Assembly: GCA_043822245.1 (NCBI GenBank)
Contig: JBDRBY010000081.1
Location: 10,773-74,772 of the forward strand
Length of the DNA stretch: 64,000 nt
Source: Candidatus Omnitrophota bacterium
GTDB taxonomy: Bacteria > Omnitrophota > Gorgyraeia > Tantalellales > Tantalellaceae
Direction: 5' to 3'
How positions within the stretch are numbered: the first letter of the stretch is position 1; every line of letters starts with the position of its first letter. A model generated the notes under the pieces. The model made no database searches. It was given only the letters and a program-made list of their open reading frames with translations, and was not told the DNA's origin. Position numbers and translations under genes: made by a program. Below, piece by piece: positions 24,682 through 38,844 of the stretch.

Positions 24682-25914
24682 ATGATGAATAGAAAAGAAC
24701 TTATAGAAAAAGCTAAACAGCATTTTGGACAATTGGTGGAAGAACAATTAGACCGTGTCGAGATGATGAAAGGCCAAAAAGATTGGATTAATTACAAGAC
24801 ATTAAAACCGATAATTATTGGTATATGCTGGGGCGATGGTATCGGCAAGATTATTTCTAGGCATGCCGAAAAAGTTCTGAGGTATATGCTTAAGAAGGAA
24901 ACAGCCTCAGGCAGTGTTGAATTTCGCGATATTAGCGGGCTGACCATAGAAAACCGGGTTAAATGGAAAAAAGCTATTCCTGACGATGTGCTTTGTGAAC
25001 TGAAAAAATGTCATGTTATTCTAAAAGGGCCGACCACTACGCCGCAGGTTGGCGGCAAGTGGCTTAATATCGAAAGCGCGAATGTCGCTATGCGCCGTGA
25101 GCTAGATCTTTTCGCGAATGTTCGGCCCGTGAAAATACCGAGAGAAGGCGTTGATTGGTGTTTTTTTAGAGAAAACACGGAAGGCGCGTATATTCTGGGA
25201 TCGAGAGGTATAGACGTTAGCGAGAGTTTAAGTGTTGACTTTAAAGTTATAACCGAGGAAGGTTCTGAAAGAATAATCCGGATGGCGTTTGAATACGCTA
25301 AAACTAACGGTAAAAAAAGGGTTACTGCTGTTACAAAAGCGAATGTGGTGAAAACGACGGACGGAAGATTTTCCCGTATGGCAAAAAAAATTGCCGGAGA
25401 ATATTTAAAGTACGGCATAAAGCAGGATGAGTGGTATATTGACATTATGACCGCCAAACTTTTAGACCCGGCCCGGCGCAAAGATTTTCAGGTTATGGTT
25501 CTTCCTAATTTGTACGGAGATATACTTACGGATGAGGCGGCTCAGCTTCAGGGCGGAGTTGGTACCGCGGGCAGTGCCAATATAGGAAAAAAGTGGGCGA
25601 TGTTTGAAGCTATCCACGGCAGCGCGCCGCGTATGGTGGATGAAGGCCGCGATATTTACGCTGATCCGTCGTCAATGATCAGGGCCAGCGCGATGCTTCT
25701 CAGGCATATAGGTTTTACTGAAAGAGCCGATTGTTTAGATAAAGCGCTCGAAGTTTGCGGACAATTCGAGAAAAAGCTTGTTATAACAGGGAGAGATAAC
25801 GGAGCGACCGGAGAAGCATTTACCGAATACCTTTTAGAATGGGCCCAAAACCCCGAACTTGATAAAAAATGGCGGAACTTTGTCATTCCCGCGAAGAGAC
25901 AGTGTCATAATTGA
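24682..25914 (+). CDS. icd: NADP-dependent isocitrate dehydrogenase (prokaryotic IDH/IMDH family)
   Basis: ILKGPTTTP...NVAMRRELDLFANVRPV, FRENTEGAY and FEAIHGSAP align with E. coli Icd blocks. Confidence 0.7.
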   Translation: MMNRKELIEKAKQHFGQLVEEQLDRVEMMKGQKDWINYKTLKPIIIGICWGDGIGKIISRHAEKVLRYMLKKETASGSVEFRDISGLTIENRVKWKKAIPDDVLCELKKCHVILKGPTTTPQVGGKWLNIESANVAMRRELDLFANVRPVKIPREGVDWCFFRENTEGAYILGSRGIDVSESLSVDFKVITEEGSERIIRMAFEYAKTNGKKRVTAVTKANVVKTTDGRFSRMAKKIAGEYLKYGIKQDEWYIDIMTAKLLDPARRKDFQVMVLPNLYGDILTDEAAQLQGGVGTAGSANIGKKWAMFEAIHGSAPRMVDEGRDIYADPSSMIRASAMLLRHIGFTERADCLDKALEVCGQFEKKLVITGRDNGATGEAFTEYLLEWAQNPELDKKWRNFVIPAKRQCHN

Positions 25915-25931
25915 TGGCTATTCTTTAAAGT

Positions 25932-25999
25932 GGATTCCTGTTTTCAAAGGAATGACAAAAGTGAGGTGTCATTCCCGCGAAAGCGGGAATCTATAATAA
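25932..25999 (+). repeat. chain of three hairpins upstream of guaA, ending in the TGTCATTCC...GCGGGAATCTATAA element
   Basis: ggattcct..aggaatg; gaatgaca..tgtcattc; attcccgc-gaaa-gcgggaat. Related TGTCATYCC-hairpin-ATCTATAA elements are at 27567-27640, 32654-32692, 37300-37345 and 43618-43665. Confidence 0.55.
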
Positions 26000-27650: not shown

Positions 27651-30533
27651 ATGAAACACGCCAGAATAGAAGTAAAAGACAAAAAAGAAATATACGACGC
27701 GGTCGCCGAAGGCCTTAAAAAAGATATAAGAGACCTTGGAATAAAGGGCGTTGACGAAGTTGAATATGCCGTGGTATATAATTTTCACGGAGAATTTTCA
27801 AAAAAAGACTTAATCAATATCTCTGCCGATGTGCTTACCGACAAAGTGTCTCAGGAATATGAATTAACGGACGCTTCCCAGTCAGAAACTAAAAAAGGTA
27901 TCCATATCGTGGAAATCGCTTACAATCCGGGAGTTATGGATCCTGTGGAACAAAGCGCGCTAAAGGCGGTAAAAGACGCGGGTATAAACGGAATCCATTC
28001 CATTACTACTTCAAAAAAATATTCTATTCATGGAGCTCTTTCCAAAAAAGATATCCAAGAGATAACAGAGAGGCTTTTATATAACAAGGTGATTCAGCAT
28101 GTTGTCTCAAGCCGGGAGGAACAAGAAACGTCTGTCTCCTATCGGTTTCAACGGATTGAAGTTGATATCCTAAACGCCGATGACGCTCAGTTGGAGCGTG
28201 TAAGCAGGCAGGGACAGCTCTATTTGAGCCTGATCGAAATGAGGGCGGTGAAGGAGCATTTTAAAAAGCTTAAACGTAACCCCACGGATTGTGAACTTGA
28301 GGTAATAGCGCAGACTTGGAGTGAACATTGTAAACATAAAACAATGATGGGCAGTGTTGAGTTTAACGGATGCCATATCGAAAATTTATTAAAAGACACG
28401 GTAATGAAAGTAACAAAAGAACTTGATAAAACTTGGTGCGTTTCTGTTTTTAAAGACAATGCCGGAATTATTAAGTTTGACGAAGAATATAACGTGTGTT
28501 TTAAAGTAGAAACACATAATCATCCGTCCGCTCTTGAGCCGTATGGAGGCGCGGAGACAGGTGTTGGAGGCGTAATCCGTGACCCTATGGGAACCGGCAG
28601 GGGCGCCAAACCTATCATTAACACCGATATCTTTTGTTTTGGAATGCCTGAAGCGGCATTAGAGTCAATTCCTAAAGGGGTCTTGCATCCGAAGCGCGTG
28701 CTCAAAGGCGTGGTCAGCGGAGTGAGGGATTATGGTAATAAAATGGGTATTCCGACGGTTAACGGCGCGGTTTGTTTTGATGGGAGATATACGGCTAATC
28801 CGTTGGTTTTTTGCGGTAATGTCGGGATAATGCCTGCCAAATTTTCGTTCAAAAAAGTTTCTTCCGGAGATTTGATTGTCGCTGTGGGCGGGAGAACCGG
28901 CAGGGACGGCATCCATGGCGCGACATTTTCTTCCGCAGAACTTACGTCTGAATCGGAAAAGGTTTCAGGCGCGGCAGTCCAAATAGGCAATCCAATAACC
29001 GAGAAAAAAATGTTAGATGTGCTCTTAAAAGCGAGAGATTTAGAGCTTTATGAAGCTATAACCGATTGCGGCGCGGGAGGGTTTTCGAGCGCGGTGGGGG
29101 AAATGGCGGAAGAAACCGGAGCTCTTGTGCGGCTGGAAAATATTCCGTTAAAATACAAGGGGCTCAGGCCCTGGGAGATATGGGTTTCAGAAGCGCAGGA
29201 GAGAATGGTGCTCGCGGTAAAACCGGAAAAGTTAGAAAAATTAATGGAGATTTTTGAAACTGAAAATGTGGAAGCTCTTGTCATCGGAGAGTTTACCGGC
29301 ACAAAAAAACTTCAAATATATTATGAAAAAAATGAGGTAGTTGACCTGGAAATGTCTTTTATTCATGAAGGCCTTCCTAAAATAACTCGCAAAGCTTGTT
29401 GGACGGAAAAAACGCGGGATAACAATATTCTTCTTCCTGAAAAATCCGACCTTACTAATGACCTTTTGGATATACTCGCCTCATGGAATGTGTGCAGTAA
29501 AGAATGGATTATCAGGCAGTATGACCATGAGGTTCAGGGCGGAAGCGTTTTAAAGCCTTTAGTGGGAGTCCACAATGACGGGCCTTCGGACGCTTCGATA
29601 ACAAGGCCGCTATTGAATAGCAATAAGGGAATTATCCTTGCTAATGGGATAAATCCCTTTTATGGAGATATTGATCCTTATTGGATGAGTGCCAGTGTTA
29701 TCGATGAAGCCTTGCGCCAGATTGTCGCGGTTGGTGGAAGAGTCGACAAAACCGCGCTCTTAGATAACTTTTGCTGGGGGAATACGGAAAAACCGGAGCA
29801 GTTAGGCTCATTAGTACGTGCTTCTCAAGGCTGTTACGATATGGCAAAAGTGTACGGCACGCCTTTTATTTCGGGGAAAGACAGCCTTAACAATGAGTTT
29901 AACACGGGGAGGGAAACAATTTCAATACCTCCGACTTTATTGATTTCCGCCATAAGTATTATGGACGATGTTAGAAAATCTATTTCGTCTGATATAAAAA
30001 AGGCCGGTAATTTGATATATGTAATCGGCATAACTTTTCAGGAAATGGGCGCGTCAAGATATTTTTTGTCACGTGGAGAAAAAGGGGGCGCTGTCCCAAG
30101 AGTAGATCCGGGGGAGTCGTTAAAACTTATGAATACGCTTTCTTCCGCGATTGAAAAAGGTGTGGTTTTGTCCTGCCATGACTCCTCTGAAGGCGGGCTC
30201 GCGGTTTGTATCGCGGAAATGCTTTTTTCGGGAGGGTTGGGCGCGCGGATTTCTCTTAAGAATGTGCCCAGAGAAGAATGTATAACGAGAGACGATGTTA
30301 TCCTTTTTTCAGAATCAAATTCAAGGTTTGTTGTTGAAGTGTCGCCAAAAGATAAAGGCAATTTTGAAAACGCTATGAAAGAGACGCCATATGGTTTTAT
30401 CGGTGAAGTTTTAGAAAATAAAGAATTAATCATAAAAGGTTTTGATGATGAAGTAGTAATTAGCGCAGATATCGATAAACTAAAAGAAAAATGGCAAGCT
30501 CCTTTTAAAAATTTAATGCATGAAAAAAAATAA
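27651..30533 (+). CDS. purL: phosphoribosylformylglycinamidine synthase PurL with a fused N-terminal PurS-like domain
   Basis: Residues 1-~85 are PurS-like, followed by the PurM-like AIR-synthase-related duplication (GAETGVGG..., DCGAGG). Confidence 0.9.
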   Translation: MKHARIEVKDKKEIYDAVAEGLKKDIRDLGIKGVDEVEYAVVYNFHGEFSKKDLINISADVLTDKVSQEYELTDASQSETKKGIHIVEIAYNPGVMDPVEQSALKAVKDAGINGIHSITTSKKYSIHGALSKKDIQEITERLLYNKVIQHVVSSREEQETSVSYRFQRIEVDILNADDAQLERVSRQGQLYLSLIEMRAVKEHFKKLKRNPTDCELEVIAQTWSEHCKHKTMMGSVEFNGCHIENLLKDTVMKVTKELDKTWCVSVFKDNAGIIKFDEEYNVCFKVETHNHPSALEPYGGAETGVGGVIRDPMGTGRGAKPIINTDIFCFGMPEAALESIPKGVLHPKRVLKGVVSGVRDYGNKMGIPTVNGAVCFDGRYTANPLVFCGNVGIMPAKFSFKKVSSGDLIVAVGGRTGRDGIHGATFSSAELTSESEKVSGAAVQIGNPITEKKMLDVLLKARDLELYEAITDCGAGGFSSAVGEMAEETGALVRLENIPLKYKGLRPWEIWVSEAQERMVLAVKPEKLEKLMEIFETENVEALVIGEFTGTKKLQIYYEKNEVVDLEMSFIHEGLPKITRKACWTEKTRDNNILLPEKSDLTNDLLDILASWNVCSKEWIIRQYDHEVQGGSVLKPLVGVHNDGPSDASITRPLLNSNKGIILANGINPFYGDIDPYWMSASVIDEALRQIVAVGGRVDKTALLDNFCWGNTEKPEQLGSLVRASQGCYDMAKVYGTPFISGKDSLNNEFNTGRETISIPPTLLISAISIMDDVRKSISSDIKKAGNLIYVIGITFQEMGASRYFLSRGEKGGAVPRVDPGESLKLMNTLSSAIEKGVVLSCHDSSEGGLAVCIAEMLFSGGLGARISLKNVPREECITRDDVILFSESNSRFVVEVSPKDKGNFENAMKETPYGFIGEVLENKELIIKGFDDEVVISADIDKLKEKWQAPFKNLMHEKK

Positions 30534-31594: not shown

Positions 31595-32245
31595 ATGAAA
31601 AATGAACGTATTGTGAACGATACACCCACGCAAGACCCATGGCGTGTATTTAGAATAATGGGTGAATTTGTGGACGGGTTTGAAGCTTTGAAAGATGTAG
31701 GCAAAGCCATAAGTGTGTTTGGAGCGTCAAGGTTGAAGAGAACGCATAAATATTACGCGTTGGCTGAACACGCGGCAGCTCTTTTTGCCAAAGATGGTTA
31801 TTCTGTTATAACAGGAGCCGGAGAAGGAATAATGGAAGCTGCCAATAAGGGCGCGAAAAAAGCGGGCGGTAAATCAGTTGGCCTTAACATCCTTATCCCG
31901 CTTGAACAAAAGATCAATAAATATGTCAACCTTCCGCTTGAATTTCGGTATTTTTTTGTTAGAAAATTAATGTTTGCCAAATATAGTAAAGCCTTTTTAG
32001 TGTTCCCGGGCGGATTTGGCACCTTGGATGAATTTTTTGAAGCAGTCGCGCTTATACAAACCAAAAGGGTCAAACCTTTTCCGGTAATCCTTGTCGGAAA
32101 AGATTATTGGGAAGGTATGCTGAAATGGATAAAAGCGGCGTGCCTAAAGAACGGAACTATCAGCAAGGCTGATATGGATATTTTTAAAGTGTTGGACAAA
32201 CCGGAAGATATGGTTAAATTTGTGAATTATTTTTATGAAAGATAG
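31595..32245 (+). CDS. LOG family protein (cytokinin riboside 5'-monophosphate phosphoribohydrolase-like; TIGR00730)
   Basis: VITGAGEGIMEAANKGA and PGGFGTLDEFFE motifs. Its RBS is supplied by the Repeat-A element. Confidence 0.8.
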   Translation: MKNERIVNDTPTQDPWRVFRIMGEFVDGFEALKDVGKAISVFGASRLKRTHKYYALAEHAAALFAKDGYSVITGAGEGIMEAANKGAKKAGGKSVGLNILIPLEQKINKYVNLPLEFRYFFVRKLMFAKYSKAFLVFPGGFGTLDEFFEAVALIQTKRVKPFPVILVGKDYWEGMLKWIKAACLKNGTISKADMDIFKVLDKPEDMVKFVNYFYER

Positions 32246-32258
32246 GGGGAGGGCCAGT

Positions 32259-32648
32259 ATGAACGATAATTATAACGACGAAAAAAGAGAATTTTTAAGA
32301 ATAGAGCATGACGCGCCGTTAAATTTTAAAGTACTTAGCGGTGAAAGGCTGATTACAAAATCTGATATTTCTTCGTGTAATATCAGCGCGTCAGGCCTGC
32401 TTTTTAGAACCACGGCTGAAAGTTCGATCCCTGCGCTCTCAAGCATAGTGTGGGTAGAATTGGATGATAAGATGCTGAATGTTTGTGCCGAGATTGAAAA
32501 TGATCTTGTTATTCATAAAAACGGACTTTTTGGAAGAGTGGTTAGGATAGCTGAAGGTGAGCCCGGCAAATCCTATGACATCGGTGTGTGTTTTTTGCGA
32601 AAAAAAGATATGACCGAAGAAGAAATCCACTCGCTTGTAGGAGAGTAA
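32259..32648 (+). CDS. PilZ domain protein
   Basis: The ATG at 32259 is preceded by ggggagg. It has EKREFLRI (RxxxR) and NISASGLLFRT. Confidence 0.6.
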   Translation: MNDNYNDEKREFLRIEHDAPLNFKVLSGERLITKSDISSCNISASGLLFRTTAESSIPALSSIVWVELDDKMLNVCAEIENDLVIHKNGLFGRVVRIAEGEPGKSYDIGVCFLRKKDMTEEEIHSLVGE

Positions 32649-32712
32649 CCCATTGTCATCCCGGAATTTTGCAAAGCAAAATATCCTGGATACATCAACC
32701 AAAGGTATTATC

Positions 32713-32922
32713 ATGGAAACTCTAAAAAACTTTTTTATAGGTCTTTTTGTAATTATCGCGTCTTTCATCCTTCTCGTCGTAATATCGCTTACCTGGCCGT
32801 TTATTTTCGGTATCAGCTCAATCTTGTTGACAATACTAGCCGCGATTCTTCTTGTCGTCCTAATTTTATCAATAATAGTTTTGGTCGGCCACATCACCCG
32901 CAAACTCCTGCGCCGTTCGTAA
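32713..32922 (+). CDS. small two-TM membrane protein
   Basis: Two hydrophobic helices. The start is taken at METLKNFF, because the ORF-track extension to 32653 translates a hairpin repeat. Confidence 0.3.
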   Translation: METLKNFFIGLFVIIASFILLVVISLTWPFIFGISSILLTILAAILLVVLILSIIVLVGHITRKLLRRS

Positions 32923-33111
32923 GCAGAGCGGATAGCGAATGGTGGATAGTGGACGGTGAAGTGTAAATAAGGGGGAAGGGGGATTTCTCCACTAGCCCCT
33001 CGTTGTTAAAGAGGTGAACATAAGGTATGGCTAACCTGGTTAGATTTTTATGAAATAAAAGGTAGATTTTGTTCTGTTTTGTGATACAATGTTGTCATTC
33101 AATGTTAGTTT

Positions 33112-33153
33112 AAACCTGTTTCAGCCTTTGCCGAAGGCAAAGTGGAAACAGGT
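33112..33153 (+). promoter_or_regulatory. strong nested hairpin in the 5' leader of the giant DUF89-domain gene
   Basis: aaacctgtttc-agcctttgcc-gaa-ggcaaagt-ggaaacaggtt. The inner arms resemble the GGCAAAGG/CCTTTGCC palindrome. Confidence 0.4.
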
Positions 33154-33183
33154 TCGTTATAAAATTATGCGAGTTTGTTAATC

Positions 33184-36100
33184 ATGAAAAAGACACATCG
33201 AATAATAGCAGTCATTGTTTTAATTTGTTTCGCGGCCAGTTCTTGTCCATGTCCAGCGTTTTCAAACTCTTTACACGATAACACGCTTAGTGAGACATTA
33301 GCCGTTCCGTCAATATTTGGTAACCTTGTTGGTTTTCAGCTAAAAGATATTGGCAATATCCAACTCGAGCTTCAGGCATATCTTATGCGGACTGGCGAGA
33401 CAACACTTACCATAAAAAAACTTAAAATGGGAACTGTTGTACTGAACGAAAGTACAGTATTCAATCCATCTGACATGCACTTTATTTTTAGCGGAATCCA
33501 GGATTTTCCGGGAAATAATATCTCCGTTGAATGTAGAGTTAAACGAGAAAAGGCATGGAGCGTTCAACAAGAAAATGTATATAGAGTCCCCAAACGAAAG
33601 GTTGAACAATATTACATTGTGTTTTCAAAAACAAAGGACGAAGATAATGGTTTTCCAATTGTTGAGGTATACACGAAAAAAGAATGGGATTGGATACAAA
33701 TACAACTGGCTAAGGGGCTAATAACGGTTCCGCCTAAAAGGATTTCATACAACAAAGAAGACGCGGAAGCTATTGAGAGATACCTTCAGCATGAAAAAGG
33801 TATAGATAAAGCGATTAGTTACGCGCACTACTATAACTTTGTTGGAAAACCTTTTAAGAAAGACTATTATCAAGAACTAATCCACCAAATTTATAGCAAT
33901 CTAAATTTCAGAGTAGAAACTCCGGAAGGCCTTGTGCCAATAGACCGCAGAGATTTTTTTCTGATTAAATGTACCCCTCAAATAAAAAAAATGATGAGAG
34001 ATTTTCCCAAAACTAAGGTTATTGATGAAAACGGCACAGAACATGAAATTATGTATGGAAGCCATTCCAGTAACCATGCTGTACACATCTTTGTTGAAGA
34101 AGAGGTTTTCAACGTGCTTGTAAATGGAAATGTGGGAGAAACTCCGGGTATGTTATCCCTGATCAGAGAAATGAATGGTATCTGGGTAGAATCTTTTTTA
34201 ACAGAAAAGATTGTCCATGAAATAGGTGTTATGGCGGGCTATCCTGTTTTGGAAGTAGACGCGAGCGGCAGACCGATTAATTTGATGGACAAAAGATGGC
34301 AGGAGTATTTCGAGACACACATGACCCCGTCCACAACGTTAGAAGTGAAAGCTGTTGATTTGGATATAACCATTCACAAAAGAGACTATGCGGGAGGTTT
34401 TTCTGAGGAAAAAGAGGTAGCTGTTCTTAGCGGCGAACCTTTGCTAGGGGTAGAAGCGTTACATGCGAAGCAACAAGAATTAAAAAAAGAAGGATGTCTT
34501 CCGTGGGAAAAGGGGGTCAATACAGACGAATATTGGAACGAATTACCCAGGGAGTTAGATACCGGAGTTCCGCCAGAGGTTACGGTAGATGATGTTAGAT
34601 TTGTATTTCCTGATTTTATTCAGCAGATGTGGATTGTTGTACAGGAAATAATTGAAAGTAAGGAATTTGAAGAAAAGGTAAAAGCCGCGTGGGACAACGC
34701 CGGGCATGAAGATGAAACGACGTATTATGAAAGCATTATAGGAAAGTTAAGAGCGCTGAGAGTAAATATTCTTTCAAACTCGCCTATAGAGGCATTGGGG
34801 GAAGGTGTTGATTTTGAGATAAAACAGCGATGGGATGTGGTAATGGGTAAGTACATAGGCAAAAGATGGTTTATGGCGTCAGGCGAAGAATTTGGTCTTT
34901 TTGAGAAGATAATTGAGGATAAGGTGGGAGATAATCCGAAGGAAAAAGAAGATTATGAATTATGTAAAGAAAACTTCAGAAAAACACAAGGATTAGATGA
35001 GGCCAGTGGGAACATTCCATGGCTGTTGGCCGCGGATTACAGGTATGTTAAGATATTAGAGGCTACAGGATATTGGGAAAATGGGGTTGATCCGTTTATT
35101 GAGAAAAAATCCAAAACTTGCGAAAAAGGATGCGAGCTGTTTCAGGAAAAAGTAAACATTAAATCTCTCAAAAAGTGTGAAGAAGCGCATAATTGCGGGG
35201 GTGTTACAGTAGGAATGAGATATTTGTTGGATATCTTGCTTTTAGGTAATATGCTAAGCGATTCTCTACACAAGACAACAGAAAAGAAAAATGAGGTTTA
35301 TCTAATTGATGACAGGAAAAAAGCCCTGAATTATCTGATACATCTAAAAGAATTGACAAACAAAGGAGAAAAAACAGAACTGCATATTCTTCATGACAAC
35401 GTGGGGCTTGAATTAGTTACACTTTTTTGGATTATGGACTATTGCGTAAGGCACAACATTGTCAGCAAGGTTGTATTGCATACAAAAAATTATCCTTATT
35501 GTGTATCTGATGTCGCGGGAGAAAAAGATATTTATTTGCAATTGGATCAGATGACGAAATTTGGAGGTGAACTTAATGAGCTTTCCTTGAGGGTAAAGCG
35601 TTGTATCGAAACAGATAAAAACATAGAGATACTTGAACCTCACTGGTTTTCAACATTGGGCCAGAATTTTGTTGATATGCCAAAAGAGTATTATTCAAAA
35701 CTCGGGAAAGCGGATCTCGTTATGGTTGTAGGGGATAAATGGTATAGAAAACTTTTCGCGAATCGAAATTGGCCGCACACTGAGTCTGCTGAAAAAATTT
35801 TAAGCTATTTGCCAGCGCCTACCCTTATCGTGCGTATGGGAAAATGCCCAATATTAGTTGGAATAGGAATGAAAGGCGCGAAGTTTCTCAGGGATATTGG
35901 TAAATGGTGGGAACCACCCAAATATGGATTAATAGAATTTGTTCTAGGGTACAAGAAAAAAATAGAAAACATGAAACTTTTGGCAAAAGAAATCGGCACT
36001 GAGATTGCCCAGCCGGTACTGGATAGGCCCTATACGTTGTTTACCTGTGGTGACTTTTACGCGGAGAGAAAAGAATATGAAAGTGATTTAGAAAACTATG

Positions 36101-36633
36101 GCAGTATATTTCGCCCGTGTTGGATAGAGTCAGATAAGCCGGATGCGATTATTCGAAACATAGAGGATGCGATAGAAAACAGCCTTGATCCTAACAGTGT
36201 GACAGTTCAACTCCCGAAGGTGTTTTTCGAAGAATCCGGAGCAGGATATATGAGTGAGTTGTGTGCCTTAAGGAAACAGGGTGTCAAGTTTATGGTTATA
36301 AATACGCAAGGCATGAATGGTGAGGGAAGCAAAGAAAAACGAGCTGAATATCGTTTGAGTATATACGCGATGATGCTTTTGGCCAGAAGAATAAACGCGA
36401 AAAAAACAGAGGAGAATAGAAAAATTTACGAACTACTAGAGTTTTTTATAATGAGCCGTCTTGAAGAGAGCCGTAAAATAGATAATATTCAGAATTACAT
36501 AGAGGTTTTAAAACAAGAAAACCTTAACGAAGGTGATATGTTCGTGATAATGAACACAATGCTTTTTTATAAACCGGCAGAAAGATTCGCACTGGATTAC
36601 AACACAATCGCGCCGGCGCTTATTTCAGCATAA
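33184..36633 (+). CDS. large (1149 aa) secreted/lipid-anchored protein with a C-terminal DUF89/ARMT1-like (damage-control phosphatase) domain
   Basis: Signal peptide MKKTHRIIAVIVLICFAASSC. The C-terminal region has HDNVGLELVTLF (cf. DNxGxE of DUF89) and VGDKWYRKLFANRNW (cf. GDxNYRKL...RxW). Confidence 0.6.
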   Translation: MKKTHRIIAVIVLICFAASSCPCPAFSNSLHDNTLSETLAVPSIFGNLVGFQLKDIGNIQLELQAYLMRTGETTLTIKKLKMGTVVLNESTVFNPSDMHFIFSGIQDFPGNNISVECRVKREKAWSVQQENVYRVPKRKVEQYYIVFSKTKDEDNGFPIVEVYTKKEWDWIQIQLAKGLITVPPKRISYNKEDAEAIERYLQHEKGIDKAISYAHYYNFVGKPFKKDYYQELIHQIYSNLNFRVETPEGLVPIDRRDFFLIKCTPQIKKMMRDFPKTKVIDENGTEHEIMYGSHSSNHAVHIFVEEEVFNVLVNGNVGETPGMLSLIREMNGIWVESFLTEKIVHEIGVMAGYPVLEVDASGRPINLMDKRWQEYFETHMTPSTTLEVKAVDLDITIHKRDYAGGFSEEKEVAVLSGEPLLGVEALHAKQQELKKEGCLPWEKGVNTDEYWNELPRELDTGVPPEVTVDDVRFVFPDFIQQMWIVVQEIIESKEFEEKVKAAWDNAGHEDETTYYESIIGKLRALRVNILSNSPIEALGEGVDFEIKQRWDVVMGKYIGKRWFMASGEEFGLFEKIIEDKVGDNPKEKEDYELCKENFRKTQGLDEASGNIPWLLAADYRYVKILEATGYWENGVDPFIEKKSKTCEKGCELFQEKVNIKSLKKCEEAHNCGGVTVGMRYLLDILLLGNMLSDSLHKTTEKKNEVYLIDDRKKALNYLIHLKELTNKGEKTELHILHDNVGLELVTLFWIMDYCVRHNIVSKVVLHTKNYPYCVSDVAGEKDIYLQLDQMTKFGGELNELSLRVKRCIETDKNIEILEPHWFSTLGQNFVDMPKEYYSKLGKADLVMVVGDKWYRKLFANRNWPHTESAEKILSYLPAPTLIVRMGKCPILVGIGMKGAKFLRDIGKWWEPPKYGLIEFVLGYKKKIENMKLLAKEIGTEIAQPVLDRPYTLFTCGDFYAERKEYESDLENYGSIFRPCWIESDKPDAIIRNIEDAIENSLDPNSVTVQLPKVFFEESGAGYMSELCALRKQGVKFMVINTQGMNGEGSKEKRAEYRLSIYAMMLLARRINAKKTEENRKIYELLEFFIMSRLEESRKIDNIQNYIEVLKQENLNEGDMFVIMNTMLFYKPAERFALDYNTIAPALISA

Positions 36634-36760
36634 CATTTTACTCTCCGGAAGCGCGTATTTTTTTGTACCGTTTGCGAATTTTTTACTTTTTATAATTGAA
36701 CTATTACAAAAAAAAAGTACACTTGCAAAGCTAAAACTGCAAACGGTACAAATTGACAAA

Positions 36761-37036
36761 ATGGACCTTAAAAAATACTCACAATACACAAAAGAAAAAG
36801 AGAACAAATTTGAAGCTGTTTGCGCAAGGTGCGGCCAGTGTTGCGGCGCGTTGGATGACCCGTGTCAAAATCTCGCGAAAGATGAAAGCGGCAGATATTT
36901 TTGCAAAGATTACAAAAACCGTCTTGGCCCGCAAAAAACCGCCTCAGGCAATTTTTTCAACTGTGTCCCTATTCGCGAACACATTTCACACTCAACTCTC
37001 AGGCCAGCCTGCGCGTACAAATTATACCAACTCTAA
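36761..37036 (+). CDS. YkgJ-family cysteine-cluster (putative Zn/Fe-chelating) protein
   Basis: CARCGQCC (CxxCxxCC) is the hallmark of PF03692, and the C-terminus carries RPACAY. Confidence 0.45.
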   Translation: MDLKKYSQYTKEKENKFEAVCARCGQCCGALDDPCQNLAKDESGRYFCKDYKNRLGPQKTASGNFFNCVPIREHISHSTLRPACAYKLYQL

Positions 37037-37270
37037 AAATTAAATGCCCACAATTTTCCCCCACTTTGGAAAAGGAGGCAGGTGGATTTTTTGTAAATCC
37101 GGAATAAAATCTTCCCTATCCCCTCTTTGTCAAAGAGGGGGAAGACATATGAATGGTTGTTTTTTGGTGGTATAGTCGCGAATGTACATTTATTTTCTGT
37201 ATTTGGTATAACAGCATGAATCCCCACTCTGAAAAGGAAATAAAGTCGTCACCCCTTTGAAAAATGGATA
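37028..37270 (+). repeat. Repeat B composite array
   Basis: ttcccccactttggaaaagg, cccctctttgtcaaagaggggg and cacccctttgaaaaatgg hairpins. Positions 37040-37078 are the reverse complement of 17140-17180. Confidence 0.7.
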
Positions 37271-37608
37271 GTGTAACATATTATGGGTACTTTCAAGATT
37301 GTCATCCCGGAATTTCGCGGAGCGAAATATCCGGGATCTATAAGATTTAATCATTTTTAGATTACTGATCCCCGCTTCCCCCCTTCGGGGACTTCGCGCG
37401 GGGATGACACCAGGTCAAAGTGTCCATAACTCTTGACACTATGTTTTATAAAAAAATCCATCATATTAAACAAAAATATGGTACTATATTAAATCCTGAT
37501 GTTGCACTAGACCATGGCGAATGACACTAATCTTTTAGCTCAAAAATCTTAGCATTCTTCATCCATGGTCTAATTCAATATCCGGGTTACAAAAAAAGGG
37601 AGGGCAAT

Positions 37609-38844
37609 GTGTCCCAACAGAATCATTTACAAATAACAAAGGAAGAGATTTTTGAATATCATCTTGGCGGAAAGATTGGCCTGGCGCTTTTAAAAAAGCT
37701 TACCAGCCAGAGAGACCTTAGCATGGCTTACACTCCGGGTGTGTCTAAGGTTTGCGAAGCGATTCAGGAAGATCCCTCGAAAGTTTATTCCCTAACTTCT
37801 AAAGGCAATCTTGTTGCCGTGGTGACTGACGGCACAGCGGTTTTAGGGCTGGGAAACATAGGAGCGAAGGCTTCTATCCCGGTTATGGAAGGTAAGGCGG
37901 TTCTTTTTAAGGTATTCGCGGGTGTTGACGCGTGGCCTGTGCCTCTAGAAGGCGTGCTTAATGAGAATGGCCGCACAGATATTGACAAATTTATTGAAAC
38001 TGTCGTAAGAATCGCGCCGATGTACGGAGGAATCAATCTTGAAGATATTGCCGCGCCTGAATGTTTTGAAATAGAAGATCAGCTGGATAAAATTTTAGAT
38101 ATCCCGGTATTTCATGATGACCAGTGGGGGACAGCCATAATTACGCTTGCCGCGTTAACGAATTATTGTGTGATCGCCGGAAAAAAGCCTAAAGATCTTT
38201 ATGTCGTAATAAACGGCGCCGGTGCCGCGGGCCTGCGTATAGCGGAAATGATCAAAGAAGAAGGTGTGCGAAATTGTGTTATGTGTGATTCAAAGGGTGT
38301 GATTCATACCGAAAGAAAAGATCTTAATAAGTATAAAAAAGTGTACGCTGTTGAAACTTCTAAGAGAACCCTGCTGGATGCCGCAAAAGGCGCGGATGTT
38401 CTTATAGGGGTGTCTAAGGCAGGATGCGTGACAGGTGAGATGGTGAGTTCCATGGTCGAGTACCCTGCAATTTTTGCCATGGCAAATCCGGTTCCTGAGA
38501 TTCAGCCTGAGGATGTCGCGAAATATATGAAAGGCCGAAAGTATGTTATGGCAACCGGCCGGTCGGATTACGCGAACCAGGTTAATAATGTTTTAGGTTT
38601 TCCTTTTATATTTCGCGGCGCGCTTGACGCCGGAGCGAAGAGTATTACCATGGATATGAAGCGCGCGGCGGCTCGGGCCCTGGCGGATTTAGCCAGAGAG
38701 GGGAACATCCCGGAAGAGGTAAAGAAAGCGTATGGCCGTGATTTTGAGTTTGGCGCGGATTATCTCATTCCAACGCCATTTGATCCAAGAATATGGGCTT
38801 GGGAAGCAAAGGCCGTGGCGAAGGCTTGGAAGGAAAAAGCATAG
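37609..38844 (+). CDS. NAD(P)-dependent malic enzyme, short (~410 aa) form
   Basis: The N-terminus matches the malic-enzyme family (YTPGV...VVTDGTAVLGLGNIG...), with an NAD-binding GAGAAG motif. Confidence 0.8.
   Translation: MSQQNHLQITKEEIFEYHLGGKIGLALLKKLTSQRDLSMAYTPGVSKVCEAIQEDPSKVYSLTSKGNLVAVVTDGTAVLGLGNIGAKASIPVMEGKAVLFKVFAGVDAWPVPLEGVLNENGRTDIDKFIETVVRIAPMYGGINLEDIAAPECFEIEDQLDKILDIPVFHDDQWGTAIITLAALTNYCVIAGKKPKDLYVVINGAGAAGLRIAEMIKEEGVRNCVMCDSKGVIHTERKDLNKYKKVYAVETSKRTLLDAAKGADVLIGVSKAGCVTGEMVSSMVEYPAIFAMANPVPEIQPEDVAKYMKGRKYVMATGRSDYANQVNNVLGFPFIFRGALDAGAKSITMDMKRAAARALADLAREGNIPEEVKKAYGRDFEFGADYLIPTPFDPRIWAWEAKAVAKAWKEKA

Follow-up and report, generated by a model that had tools for sequence, protein, structure and literature searches.

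MFH1799148.1, a Candidatus Omnitrophota MAG protein that NCBI lists as 'ARMT1-like domain-containing protein', is one member of a large Omnitrophota family, with DUF89 as its swappable middle. The family is built from a conserved leader, an N-module of ~380 aa, at least one interchangeable enzyme cassette and a C-module of ~227 aa at the very C-terminus, and this capped architecture recurs with different cargo. MFH1799148.1 follows the order leader, N-module, DUF89 cassette, C-module (Table 1, positions being those of the window, the whole 64,000-nt stretch of DNA analysed). A sequence-only reading of this DNA had rightly recognised an intact ORF of 1149 aa, an unusually large protein with a DUF89 domain, and had assigned that domain to the last ~400 aa, behind an uncharacterised N-terminal region of ~700 aa. 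These boundaries are revised here: DUF89 is followed by a separate 227-aa module, and the supposed N-terminal region comprises a conserved module of 400 aa and the beginning of the DUF89 cassette itself.

Table 1. Features of the capped DUF89 gene and its surroundings, in window coordinates.
Feature	Position	Strand	Remarks
Small membrane-protein gene, 69 aa (METLKNFF...)	32713..32922	+	Backbone; left edge of insertion
Lineage-specific inserted segment	32923..36760	.	Carries large gene, predicted own promoter, flanking hairpins
Extended -10 promoter-like element TGTGATACAAT	33080..33090	+	Consensus-type match, putative
Nested hairpin, predicted 5' leader	33114..33153	+	ACCTGTTTC..CCTTTGCC GAAG GGCAAAG..GAAACAGGT
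CDS of capped DUF89 carrier	33184..36633	+	1149 aa, intact ORF, NCBI MFH1799148.1
Leader, aa 1-27	33184..33264	+	MKKTHR-IIAVIVLICFAASS-CPCPAFS, followed by N; signal-peptide-like, family-conserved
N-module, aa 28-408	33265..34407	+	Motifs LAxPS, HSSNHAVHIF, HEIGVMAG, terminal RDYAGG
DUF89/ARMT1-like phosphatase cassette, aa ~425-921	34456..35946	+	PF01937 and active-site residues
C-module, aa 923-1149	35950..36630	+	Rossmann-like alpha/beta core and helical bundle, ends ...APALISA-COOH
Perfect 14-nt inverted repeat TTTGTACCGTTTGC / GCAAACGGTACAAA, 63-nt spacer	36662..36752	+	Between large gene and next gene
CxxCxxCC cysteine-cluster protein, 91 aa, MFH1799149.1	36761..37036	+	Backbone gene, not carrier part

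The DUF89 cassette and its two caps

The HMM search with PF01937 that the sequence-only reading had proposed returned a significant match over aa 512-894 (E 4.8e-28; score 98.7 bits, cut-off 25), and a phmmer search of the PDB matched six DUF89 structures (E 1.6e-16 to 6e-7), with alignments that reach aa 919. Among solved structures the cassette comes closest to eukaryotic members of subfamily III, namely human ARMT1 (6umq), S. pombe Duf89/Duf8901 (7t7k/7t7n) and yeast YMR027W (3pt1), and the likeness extends over the whole catalytic domain (aa ~500-920), where the D-N...D that binds metal, the R and K that bind phosphate, and the GDxxYR(K/R) and GN lid motifs are all kept. The active-site residues are N689, D738, N739, E743, D776, D851, R855 and K887, of which D738, N739 and D776 align with the S. 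pombe metal-binding residues D252, N253 and D290, and R855 and K887 with its phosphate-binding R371 and K405 (roles from PMC9062747); in S. pombe Duf89 the D252A and D290A substitutions abolish activity (PMC9062747). The catalytic residues, including D738, N739, D776, R855, K887 and G850-D851 of the GDxxYR motif, are invariant among 56 aligned sequences, and the two DUF89-like peptides quoted earlier are found at aa 737-748 (HDNVGLELVTLF) and aa 849-863 (VGDKWYRKLFANRNW). The active site is intact, and the cassette is predicted to be a metal-dependent phosphatase of the eukaryote-like (subfamily III) DUF89 type. Whereas known DUF89 members are free-standing cytosolic proteins of ~280-470 aa or pantothenate kinase fusions, in the present protein of 1149 aa DUF89 is an internal cassette, with an export-type leader ahead of it and an unrelated conserved module on either side. 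The same cassette was found in six further proteins (P0001, P0002 and P0004-P0007), carriers as long as 4-4.6 kaa occur in Omnitrophota, and its extra N-terminal extension of ~75 aa (aa 425-500) is common only to other Omnitrophota large proteins.

An N-module profile (from alignment A2) matches MFH1799148.1 with E 2.7e-138 over positions 1-384. The motifs by which leader-plus-N-module members are recognised (LAxPS, HSSNxAxH, HEIG and RDYAAG) lie in this protein at aa 39-43, 294-301, 345-348 and 400-405, the last being the almost invariant junction in which family N-modules end. A weakly zincin-like subdomain of the N-module contains a metzincin-like HEIGxxxG helix; a metzincin or zincin metallopeptidase was considered and set aside, HExxHxxGxxH with three His ligands not being found. 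The HEIGxxxG helix together with the RDYAAG junction suggests proteolytic processing at the boundary between N-module and cargo. The 227-aa C-module is well folded in the predicted structure (pLDDT 92), with a Rossmann/receiver/PBP-like fold, and its C-terminal ...LxSA-COOH (APALISA in MFH1799148.1) is shared by 46 of 48 relatives. Neither module has a match in Pfam, NCBIfam or the PDB; an RFC1 match obtained when the N- and C-regions were searched alone against Pfam and NCBIfam is sub-threshold and considered chance. At the protein ends, an autotransporter beta-barrel and a T9SS CTD were ruled out by motif and fold.

Exhaustive phmmer/HMMER searching gave 1150 matches, and among the best 150 representatives, on which modules were counted, the N-module is present in 82, the C-module in 77 and the pair of them in 67; the best matches alone hold at least ~90 representatives at 50% identity. 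Family proteins range from 0.4 to 3.6+ kaa, with one leader and no internal TM segments, and their cargo as identified by Pfam comprises DUF89, PGK, transaldolase, PFK, class II FBP aldolase, AlaDH, GluDH, PTA, NAD-epimerase, 2-hydroxyacid DH, ROK, MurB, CsrA, GH77, 6PGL/GlcN6P isomerase, hexokinase and aldose 1-epimerase. At the genomic loci examined every complete N-module gene ends in a C-module, with a 1186-aa ORF (L017) as sole exception, and the relatives occupy unrelated genomic contexts. The closest homolog (P0001) reads N-PGK-DUF89-C and is collinear with MFH1799148.1 save for PGK, inserted exactly at the N-module/cargo junction, and both flanking modules recur around many other enzymes. 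Sources that name an organism all give Omnitrophota except for two loci labelled Planctomycetia, and these aside the family is restricted to Omnitrophota. Scanned with the N-module profile, the GTDB genomes yielded 12 loci, and with a two-sequence alignment 0. Word-index homology searching yielded one relative with the full protein and 0 with the N-module alignment, a shortfall that we take as a limit of the method given the hundreds obtained by exhaustive search; the single relative is explained by the 55-aa fragment that represents the target's 90% cluster.

An accessory gene in a housekeeping block

The large gene is an accessory one, inserted into a conserved housekeeping block. Three syntenic Omnitrophota contigs carry icd-guaA-purL-purQ-(LOG)-PilZ-like-small ORF-CxxCxxCC-(malic enzyme) without it, and the segment is for this reason read as a lineage-specific insertion. 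Its left neighbour, the 69-aa gene, shows codon-level conservation with three relatives (L018, L019 and L020), and in L019 the ortholog directly abuts the CxxCxxCC gene. GC content inside the segment is 0.36-0.40 versus 0.41-0.47 in the flanks, and no mobile-element signature (target-site duplication, direct, inverted or terminal repeats) was found at its 32923 and 36760 edges. Origin from a defence system or phage was rejected because PADLOC and PHROGs both gave no match. Rfam returned chance matches only over 32600-37700, among them a spurious MIR4378 match that reflects the hairpin of the 14-nt inverted repeat.

Upstream of the gene, the putative promoter-like element is the only block kept between this region and that of the closest homolog, where it reads TGTGGTATAAT (L001). 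The nested hairpin that had been placed at 33112-33153 is real, and the surrounding 33060-33200 folds with an MFE of -37.6 kcal/mol (z = -3.7); the closest homolog (L001) lacks it in its 5' region, and it has no Rfam match. It was also considered as a terminator, and this was discarded, there being no U-tract after it and no call in the terminator scan. The motif reported just upstream of the hairpin, TGTCATTC, is indeed present at 33093-33100; the window holds 8 copies versus 1.85 expected, and the copy at 33093 does not lie within a longer repeat seen elsewhere.

The next gene had been called YkgJ-type, of which the cysteine pattern stands and the family assignment is not confirmed. MFH1799149.1 resembles YkgJ/YcgN (PF03692 / COG2983) in its CxxCxxCC motif (CARCGQCC), in the four further conserved Cys (C21, C24, C27 and C28 plus C35, C48, C68 and C84, eight in all) and in weak NCBIfam YcgN matches, which are sub-threshold (E 0.04-0.7, 9.7-13.5 bits versus cut-offs of 150-256); PF03692 gave no Pfam match even at E<=10. 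With 91 aa versus ~150 it has about half the length of YcgN, and it belongs to an Omnitrophota clade of its own, with 24 homologs at 48-69% identity, one of them (67% identical) named YcgN (CxxCxxCC family) by IMG. Its orthologs keep the icd...malic-enzyme synteny in three relatives that have no large gene, so that we regard it as a backbone gene and no functional partner; no homolog of it was found beside other capped-family members.

Leader and cellular location

Aa 7-20 form the sole hydrophobic segment of MFH1799148.1. By manual rule check the leader obeys Sec (SPase I) grammar, with a K/R n-region, an h-region of 12-14 residues and small residues at -3/-1 (AFS, followed by N), and the profile of 67 members has K/R at position 6, the h-region at 7-18, F16 (64/67), N19 (53/67) and then A/S-x-G/A/S. 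The AF2 model gives a helix at aa 2-20 followed by disorder at aa 22-46. Across the family the leader is confined to the true N-terminus, and internal N-module repeats go without it. The signal peptide proposed earlier is thus borne out in its features, which recur in 67 family members, and export itself is a prediction. A lipobox is unlikely because I/V precedes Cys15 and Cys is kept in only 38/67 members. A type IV pilin or pseudopilin reading of leader plus first subdomain was also set aside, a class III signal (G/A/S at -1, Glu at +5) not being found.

We put at roughly 0.5 the probability that the protein is a Sec-exported modular carrier by which an episymbiotic bacterium places a metal-dependent phosphatase beyond its cytoplasm. 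The leader would route the chain into the Sec pathway, with the N-terminus inside and the bulk outside as the positive-inside rule predicts, and would probably be cleaved after AFS27, while the two caps would share a handling function, be it anchoring, processing, oligomerisation or onward delivery. By this routing the phosphatase would act outside the cytoplasm, in the periplasm, at the cell surface or at the host-cell interface, where it may dephosphorylate sugar phosphates with a divalent metal as its only requirement. Counting against export are the rather long c-region of about 10 residues, a sequence conservation unusual for a plain Sec signal, the lack of CBM, Ig-like, dockerin or similar extracytoplasmic cargo among the family middles and the lack of conserved secretion-system genes beside family members. 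Most of the cargo, moreover, consists of classic cytoplasmic enzymes dependent on ATP, NAD(P)H, CoA or RNA (PGK, PFK, hexokinase, dehydrogenases, MurB, PTA and CsrA), and such cofactor-dependent cargo has no obvious periplasmic substrate supply.

It is this cargo, entirely cytoplasmic in type and including MurB and CsrA, that speaks for the main rival, a possible but somewhat doubtful one, in which the hydrophobic helix is an uncleaved anchor or assembly helix, the bulk of the protein stays cytoplasmic and the modules assemble or regulate enzymes on the inner membrane face as a small-cell 'metabolon', DUF89 serving ordinary metabolite damage control. Folds like that of the C-module often serve ligand binding or regulation, and a 2026 preprint interprets many Omnitrophota giants as anchored in the inner membrane, with metabolic domains on the cytoplasmic side (10.64898/2026.06.07.730766). 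The leader, however, has K/R before its hydrophobic stretch and D after it, which predicts N-in/C-out, its h-region falls short of a canonical TM helix in length, and the small-residue site comes after it; at least one such enzyme (PFK) has untagged, ordinary copies near a family member, and the large gene here is an insertion and not a core gene.

As a special case of export, the caps may translocate the enzyme into the cytoplasm of an archaeal or bacterial host and rewire its carbon metabolism. A host cytoplasm offers ATP and NAD, and with it as destination an export-type leader and cofactor-dependent cargo would no longer be at odds; the family is accessory and patchy and diversifies by cassette shuffling, and Omnitrophota, taken to be host-dependent, are described in two studies as probably episymbiotic or predatory (10.64898/2026.06.07.730766; 10.1101/2023.11.21.568195). 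We nevertheless consider such delivery improbable, the idea being purely inferential, with no linked secretion machinery and neither cap pore-forming or beta-barrel in character. MARTX toxins have conserved N- and C-terminal arms around variable effector domains, and the capped family resembles them in logic, through invariant ends, exchangeable central cassettes and diversification by swapping; it differs in having no sequence or fold similarity to them, none of their hallmarks (glycine-rich repeats, cysteine protease domain (CPD), T1SS signal), and a metabolic cargo in place of toxins. An isolated fusion of a secreted unknown domain with a C-terminal DUF89, coupled to a YkgJ-type Fe/Zn protein and hairpin-controlled, has its ingredients present (DUF89, hydrophobic N-terminus, hairpin, CxxCxxCC ORF) and is nonetheless very improbable and largely refuted by synteny, since DUF89 is central with a conserved C-module behind it, the flanking modules are common to many proteins with other cargo, genomes that lack the large gene keep the cysteine-cluster gene in place and the closest homolog has no hairpin.

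Returning to export, we would tentatively extend it to the family: leader, N-module and C-module may form a generic frame for protein handling, hitherto unrecognised and specific to the phylum, that exports otherwise cytoplasmic enzymes, possibly into hosts or a dedicated compartment, with cassette-shuffled cargo and release through processing at RDYAAG, of which the multi-enzyme giants would be elaborations. Omnitrophota giant proteins are reportedly 94% SP/TM-bearing, with multi-enzyme metabolic types among them (10.64898/2026.06.07.730766; 10.1101/2023.11.21.568195), and these 'multi-enzyme metabolic cluster' proteins and the Archaeovorins share with the capped family the phylum and the presence of sugar-metabolism enzymes (hexokinase, ROK and others) in long, mostly SP/TM-bearing polypeptides. 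The two studies deal with proteins of at least 10 kaa, sorted by Pfam content, whereas the capped family spans a lower size range, and the parts of the giant-protein and Archaeovorin literature searched do not describe the leader, N-module and C-module frame.

The annotations 'ARMT1-like domain-containing protein' and 'hypothetical protein' hide the family, and both caps merit profile models; for DUF89 itself, the protein adds a bacterial enzyme of subfamily-III-like type in a new setting. The Omnitrophota, an abundant and uncultured group of mostly ultra-small bacteria that apparently depend on hosts, here carry glycolytic, pentose-phosphate, amino-acid and cell-wall enzymes that follow a leader of export type and have a novel conserved module on each side. 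Should the capped proteins stay inside the cell, they would represent a new membrane-tethered enzyme-scaffold principle. Should they leave the cytoplasm, central-metabolism enzymes would be put to a use without precedent, and the episymbiotic lifestyle could be approached concretely through the conserved leader, the conserved junction and two new domain families.

The 1149-residue protein and its DUF89 cassette

The gene under study is, as had been claimed from the sequence alone, an uninterrupted ORF of 1149 residues counted from its ATG; an alternative TTG start three codons upstream is possible but misfits the N-terminus of the family. Its product is identical to NCBI MFH1799148.1, an [quoted passage not shown] from an 83.5-kb MAG contig, and the PurQ, LOG and malic-enzyme proteins encoded on either side have neighbouring accession numbers. 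Pfam returns one significant family, PF01937 (ARMT1-like/DUF89; aa 512–894, E 4.8e-28, 98.7 bits, cut-off 25), which bears out the proposed DUF89 assignment, and both signature peptides quoted for it are found in the protein. DUF89 had been taken for the C-terminal domain; it is instead followed by ~230 residues and preceded by a distinct module of ~410 residues. Thus, the raw observations of the sequence-only reading hold, and its domain map fails. We refer to the flanking regions as the N-module (aa 28–408) and the C-module (aa 923–1149), and to both as caps.

A PDB-wide phmmer search with the protein gave eukaryotic subfamily III enzymes as best matches (human ARMT1 6umq, E 1.6e-16; S. pombe Duf89 7t7k and Duf8901 7t7n; yeast YMR027W 3pt1), with alignments running from aa 585 or 700 up to aa 919. 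The S. pombe active site comprises D252, N253, D290, R371 and K405, mutants D252A and D290A being inactive (PMC9062747); their counterparts in the phmmer PDB alignment are D738, N739, D776, R855 and K887. A MAFFT alignment of 56 DUF89 sequences drawn from the search shows no variation at N689, D738, N739, E743, D776, D851, R855 and K887. Because the active-site residues both match those of S. pombe and are invariant in this alignment, the cassette looks catalytically competent, and the DUF89 enzyme is probably active. The same cassette (aa ~425–921) also occurs, at 43–49% identity, in proteins of 1.3–4.6 kaa without recognisable caps, in one of which it adjoins a methyltransferase.

A family with a common frame

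A word-index search with the protein found one relative, P0001 (1540 aa, 62% identical). P0001 is collinear with our protein apart from a phosphoglycerate kinase (PGK) domain (PF00162, E 1.8e-38), inserted exactly where the N-terminal region ends and the DUF89 cassette starts. An exhaustive HMMER search over 1.84 billion representatives yielded 1150 matches, which on splitting of the query into segments fell into three independent classes, being free-standing DUF89 proteins of ~400 aa, proteins with the region of aa 1–410 at their own N-terminus, and proteins with the region of aa ~923–1149 at their own extreme C-terminus. Profiles built from family alignments A2 (N-module) and A4 (C-module) were applied to the best 150 of the 1150 matches and detected the N-module in 82, the C-module in 77 and both in 67; many of those lacking a full module set among these 150 are contig-end fragments. 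Of 48 full C-module matches, 46 run to the very last residue, and the conserved terminus reads ...LSYKPxE...PDYxxVxAALISA. Complete N-module genes in the fetched loci end in a C-module in all cases but one, a 1186-aa ORF (locus L017) in which no C-module is detectable. Some proteins contain three or four N-module repeats, with a hydrophobic leader on the first copy only.

The variable middles are, by Pfam scans, ordinary cytoplasmic enzymes, and many gave no match. Identified cargo includes transaldolase (P0009), PGK, PFK, class II FBP aldolase, alanine dehydrogenase, glutamate dehydrogenase, phosphotransacetylase, NAD-dependent epimerase, D-2-hydroxyacid dehydrogenase, a xylose-isomerase-like TIM barrel, ROK kinase, MurB and CsrA, besides the combinations GH77 4-alpha-glucanotransferase with 6PGL/GlcN6P isomerase (P0018), hexokinase with AlaDH (P0105) and aldose 1-epimerase with a WD40 propeller (P0040). 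The frame of leader, N-module, cassette(s) and C-module is modular, cassettes are exchanged at fixed junctions, as with the PGK insertion in P0001, and the distribution of the genes is accessory and patchy. All sources naming an organism give Candidatus Omnitrophota, two loci labelled Planctomycetia excepted. A scan of GTDB genomes with the N-module profile located 12 loci, ten in Omnitrophota MAGs (one a complete 1.43-Mb chromosome) and two in MAGs labelled Planctomycetia by automated submission.

Members also occur in tandem (loci L005 and L015). L005 has a 2032-aa member and, after it, a 1596-aa protein (Glucosamine_iso and URO-D, weak N-module) and a third protein of >3349 aa (Aminotran_5 and HATPase_c); on the complete chromosome CP070780.1 a full N...C gene comes 210 bp after a gene that ends in a C-module. 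The annotation of P0001 probably includes 11 residues too many, since its annotated start (MPNINQGG...) falls within a predicted -10 box and an AAGGAGG Shine-Dalgarno sequence precedes an internal ATG that gives the MKKIK start typical of the family.

Neither cap matched Pfam-A (E≤10), NCBIfam, PADLOC or PHROGs, and profile searches of PDB sequences with the caps returned nothing significant; judged by their sequences, the caps are new domains. AlphaFold2 models from family alignments are usable for the N-module (pLDDT 77.7, pTM 0.72; helix 2–20, disorder 22–46, an alpha+beta subdomain, a long helix and a second alpha/beta subdomain) and excellent for the C-module (pLDDT 92.3, pTM 0.91; a four-stranded parallel alpha/beta core with a helical bundle). 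Foldseek with the N-module model gave no match below E 0.1. Conserved N-module residues are K54, D55, Y143-Y144, D193, E204, D208, H215, R256, H294-S-S-N297, H301, (H345)-E346-x-G348, N366, R371 and the terminal R400-D-Y-A403. In the HEIGVMLGxP helix, which is similar to the metzincin motif HEIGHxLGLxH, the second and third histidines of that motif are missing, and a peptidase or pseudo-peptidase role for the N-module may be regarded as a lead.

Genomic setting

The gene lies downstream of icd, guaA, purS-purL, purQ, LOG, a PilZ-like gene and a small membrane ORF, and upstream of a 91-aa CxxCxxCC ORF, malic enzyme, mraZ and the dcw cluster.

Features in the window and at loci of relatives
Feature	Coordinates	Strand	Remark
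Region of palindromic element and nearby partial copies	window 25881-25990		
Palindromic element GTCATTCCCGCGAAAGCGGGAAT	window 25968-25990		icd/guaA junction
PurL with N-terminal PurS fusion	window 27651-30533	+	960 aa
PilZ-like gene	window 32235-32648	+	
Small membrane ORF	window 32713-32922	+	69 aa, METLKNFF...
Lineage-specific insertion	window 32923-36760		3.8 kb
Extended -10 element (predicted) TGTGATACAAT	window 33080-33090		within insertion
Nested hairpin	window 33114-33153		within insertion
Large ORF	window 33184-36633	+	1149 aa
CxxCxxCC ORF	window 36761-37036		91 aa
Spacer to malic enzyme	window 37037-37608		572 bp
Imperfect inverted repeat	window 37492-37588		26 nt
Octamer TGTCATTC	window 37519, 39157		just upstream of genes
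Annotated start of P0001	L001 206-270		
Tandem family members	L005 16063-26099		
Tandem family members	L015 8813-12310		

The CxxCxxCC product, with CARCGQCC and eight cysteines in total, had been noted as a YkgJ-type protein encoded by the next gene. It has 24 Omnitrophota homologs (48–69% identity), one named YcgN (CxxCxxCC family) by IMG. Three of their loci (L018, L019 and L020) keep the block icd-guaA-purL-purQ-(LOG)-PilZ-like-small ORF-CxxCxxCC without the large gene; malic enzyme follows in L018 and L020 and a GGDEF/HD gene in L019, where the small ORF overlaps the CxxCxxCC gene start. No CxxCxxCC homolog is present in the loci of other family members. The adjacency is therefore incidental, and the YkgJ link is wrong. 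Those other members sit in unrelated housekeeping neighbourhoods and share no conserved partner genes in the fetched loci; one is close to a normal 363-aa PFK.

Since the syntenic loci keep the block without the large gene, and since the small ORF aligns codon by codon with three other Omnitrophota contigs, the intervening 3.8 kb is a lineage-specific insertion. Its GC is slightly lower than that of the flanks, and it holds a perfect 14-nt inverted repeat downstream of the gene; target-site duplication and terminal repeats were sought at the insertion and none were found. The extended -10 element is the only block conserved between the upstream regions of the gene and P0001. The hairpin noted earlier in the 5' region is real (141-nt stretch at -37.6 kcal/mol vs -25.4 ± 3.3 for shuffles, z = -3.7) and, being absent in P0001, unconserved.

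Several further observations concern the surrounding DNA. The small ORF seemingly has no NCBI protein in the record, as accession numbering leaves no slot. The PilZ-like gene, part of the conserved backbone, scores 21.4 bits, narrowly missing the Pfam cut-off; PilZ genes adjoining Omnitrophota giant genes are reported in a preprint, whereas here PilZ is present with or without the large gene. The syntenic relatives have the same 960-aa form of PurL. The spacer beyond the CxxCxxCC gene, measuring 26–106 bp in L018 and L020, contains GC-rich hairpin-like sequences (e.g. gtcatcccggaatttcgcggagcgaaatatccgggat) besides its inverted repeat, and may be a second small insertion. The octamer occurs eight times in the window vs 1.85 expected, several copies lying just upstream of genes.

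Leader, predicted export and possible handling of cargo

A Kyte-Doolittle scan finds a single hydrophobic segment, aa 7–20, within a leader that reads MKKTHR, IIAVIVLICFAASS, CPCPAFS↓NS (arrow, putative cleavage site). Over 67 members the consensus is M-x-[RK]-x-x-[KR], [IV][IV]S-x-[IV]VL-x-CFLF, N-T-x-x-S-D-x-[AS]-[FL]-[GAS], with K/R at position 6 in 61, F16 in 64, N19 in 53 and small residues at -3/-1 in about two thirds; sequence conservation of this kind is unusual in a leader. A positive n-region, an h-region of 12–14 residues and an A-x-S site together form the pattern of a cleavable Sec signal. The h-region falls short of the length of a normal TM helix, the positive-inside rule would place the bulk of the protein outside, and export is predicted for the protein and its family. 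A lipobox is unlikely (I/V at -1 of Cys15; Cys in only 38/67 members), and a class III pilin signal is excluded, since position -1 lacks G/A/S and position +5 lacks Glu.

The best reading, to which we assign a probability of about one half, is that the leader would direct Sec-dependent export, the caps would serve a common handling function and the cassette would supply enzymatic activity. For the DUF89 protein export is chemically comfortable, because this phosphatase requires only a divalent metal. The remainder of the family fits less easily, as kinases, dehydrogenases, MurB and CsrA require ATP, NAD(P)H or RNA; such cargo would imply either retention in the bacterium's own cytoplasm or delivery into that of a host, and both fit it. 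Retention, on a membrane tether, is the main rival and less likely than export. Delivery, a sub-case of export in which the caps would carry cargo into the host cytoplasm by MARTX-like logic, is improbable. That the frame constitutes a new protein-handling system is a tentative proposal.

Among Omnitrophota giants of at least 10 kaa, 94% are reported to have signal peptides or TM helices, and a class of "multi-enzyme metabolic clusters" is distinguished (10.64898/2026.06.07.730766); for Archaeovorins and dockerin-type giants, extracellular sugar pre-processing and proteolytic maturation have been suggested (10.1101/2023.11.21.568195). The capped family has phylum and theme in common with these giants. 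Its frame is absent from Pfam and NCBIfam, is not described in the passages located by term in the two preprints or in section 8 of that of 2026 as a whole, and finds no match to its terms in the 2023 Nature Microbiology survey. We class the protein as a variant of two known kinds, DUF89 enzymes and large enzyme-bearing Omnitrophota proteins.

With Sec-dependent export, the DUF89 phosphatase could remove phosphate from sugar phosphates outside the cytoplasm, in the manner of periplasmic phosphatases. Such activity would suit an episymbiont feeding on host metabolites, a lifestyle inferred in PMC10066038 and 10.64898/2026.06.07.730766. The locus merits attention for the family of capped carriers that this protein reveals.
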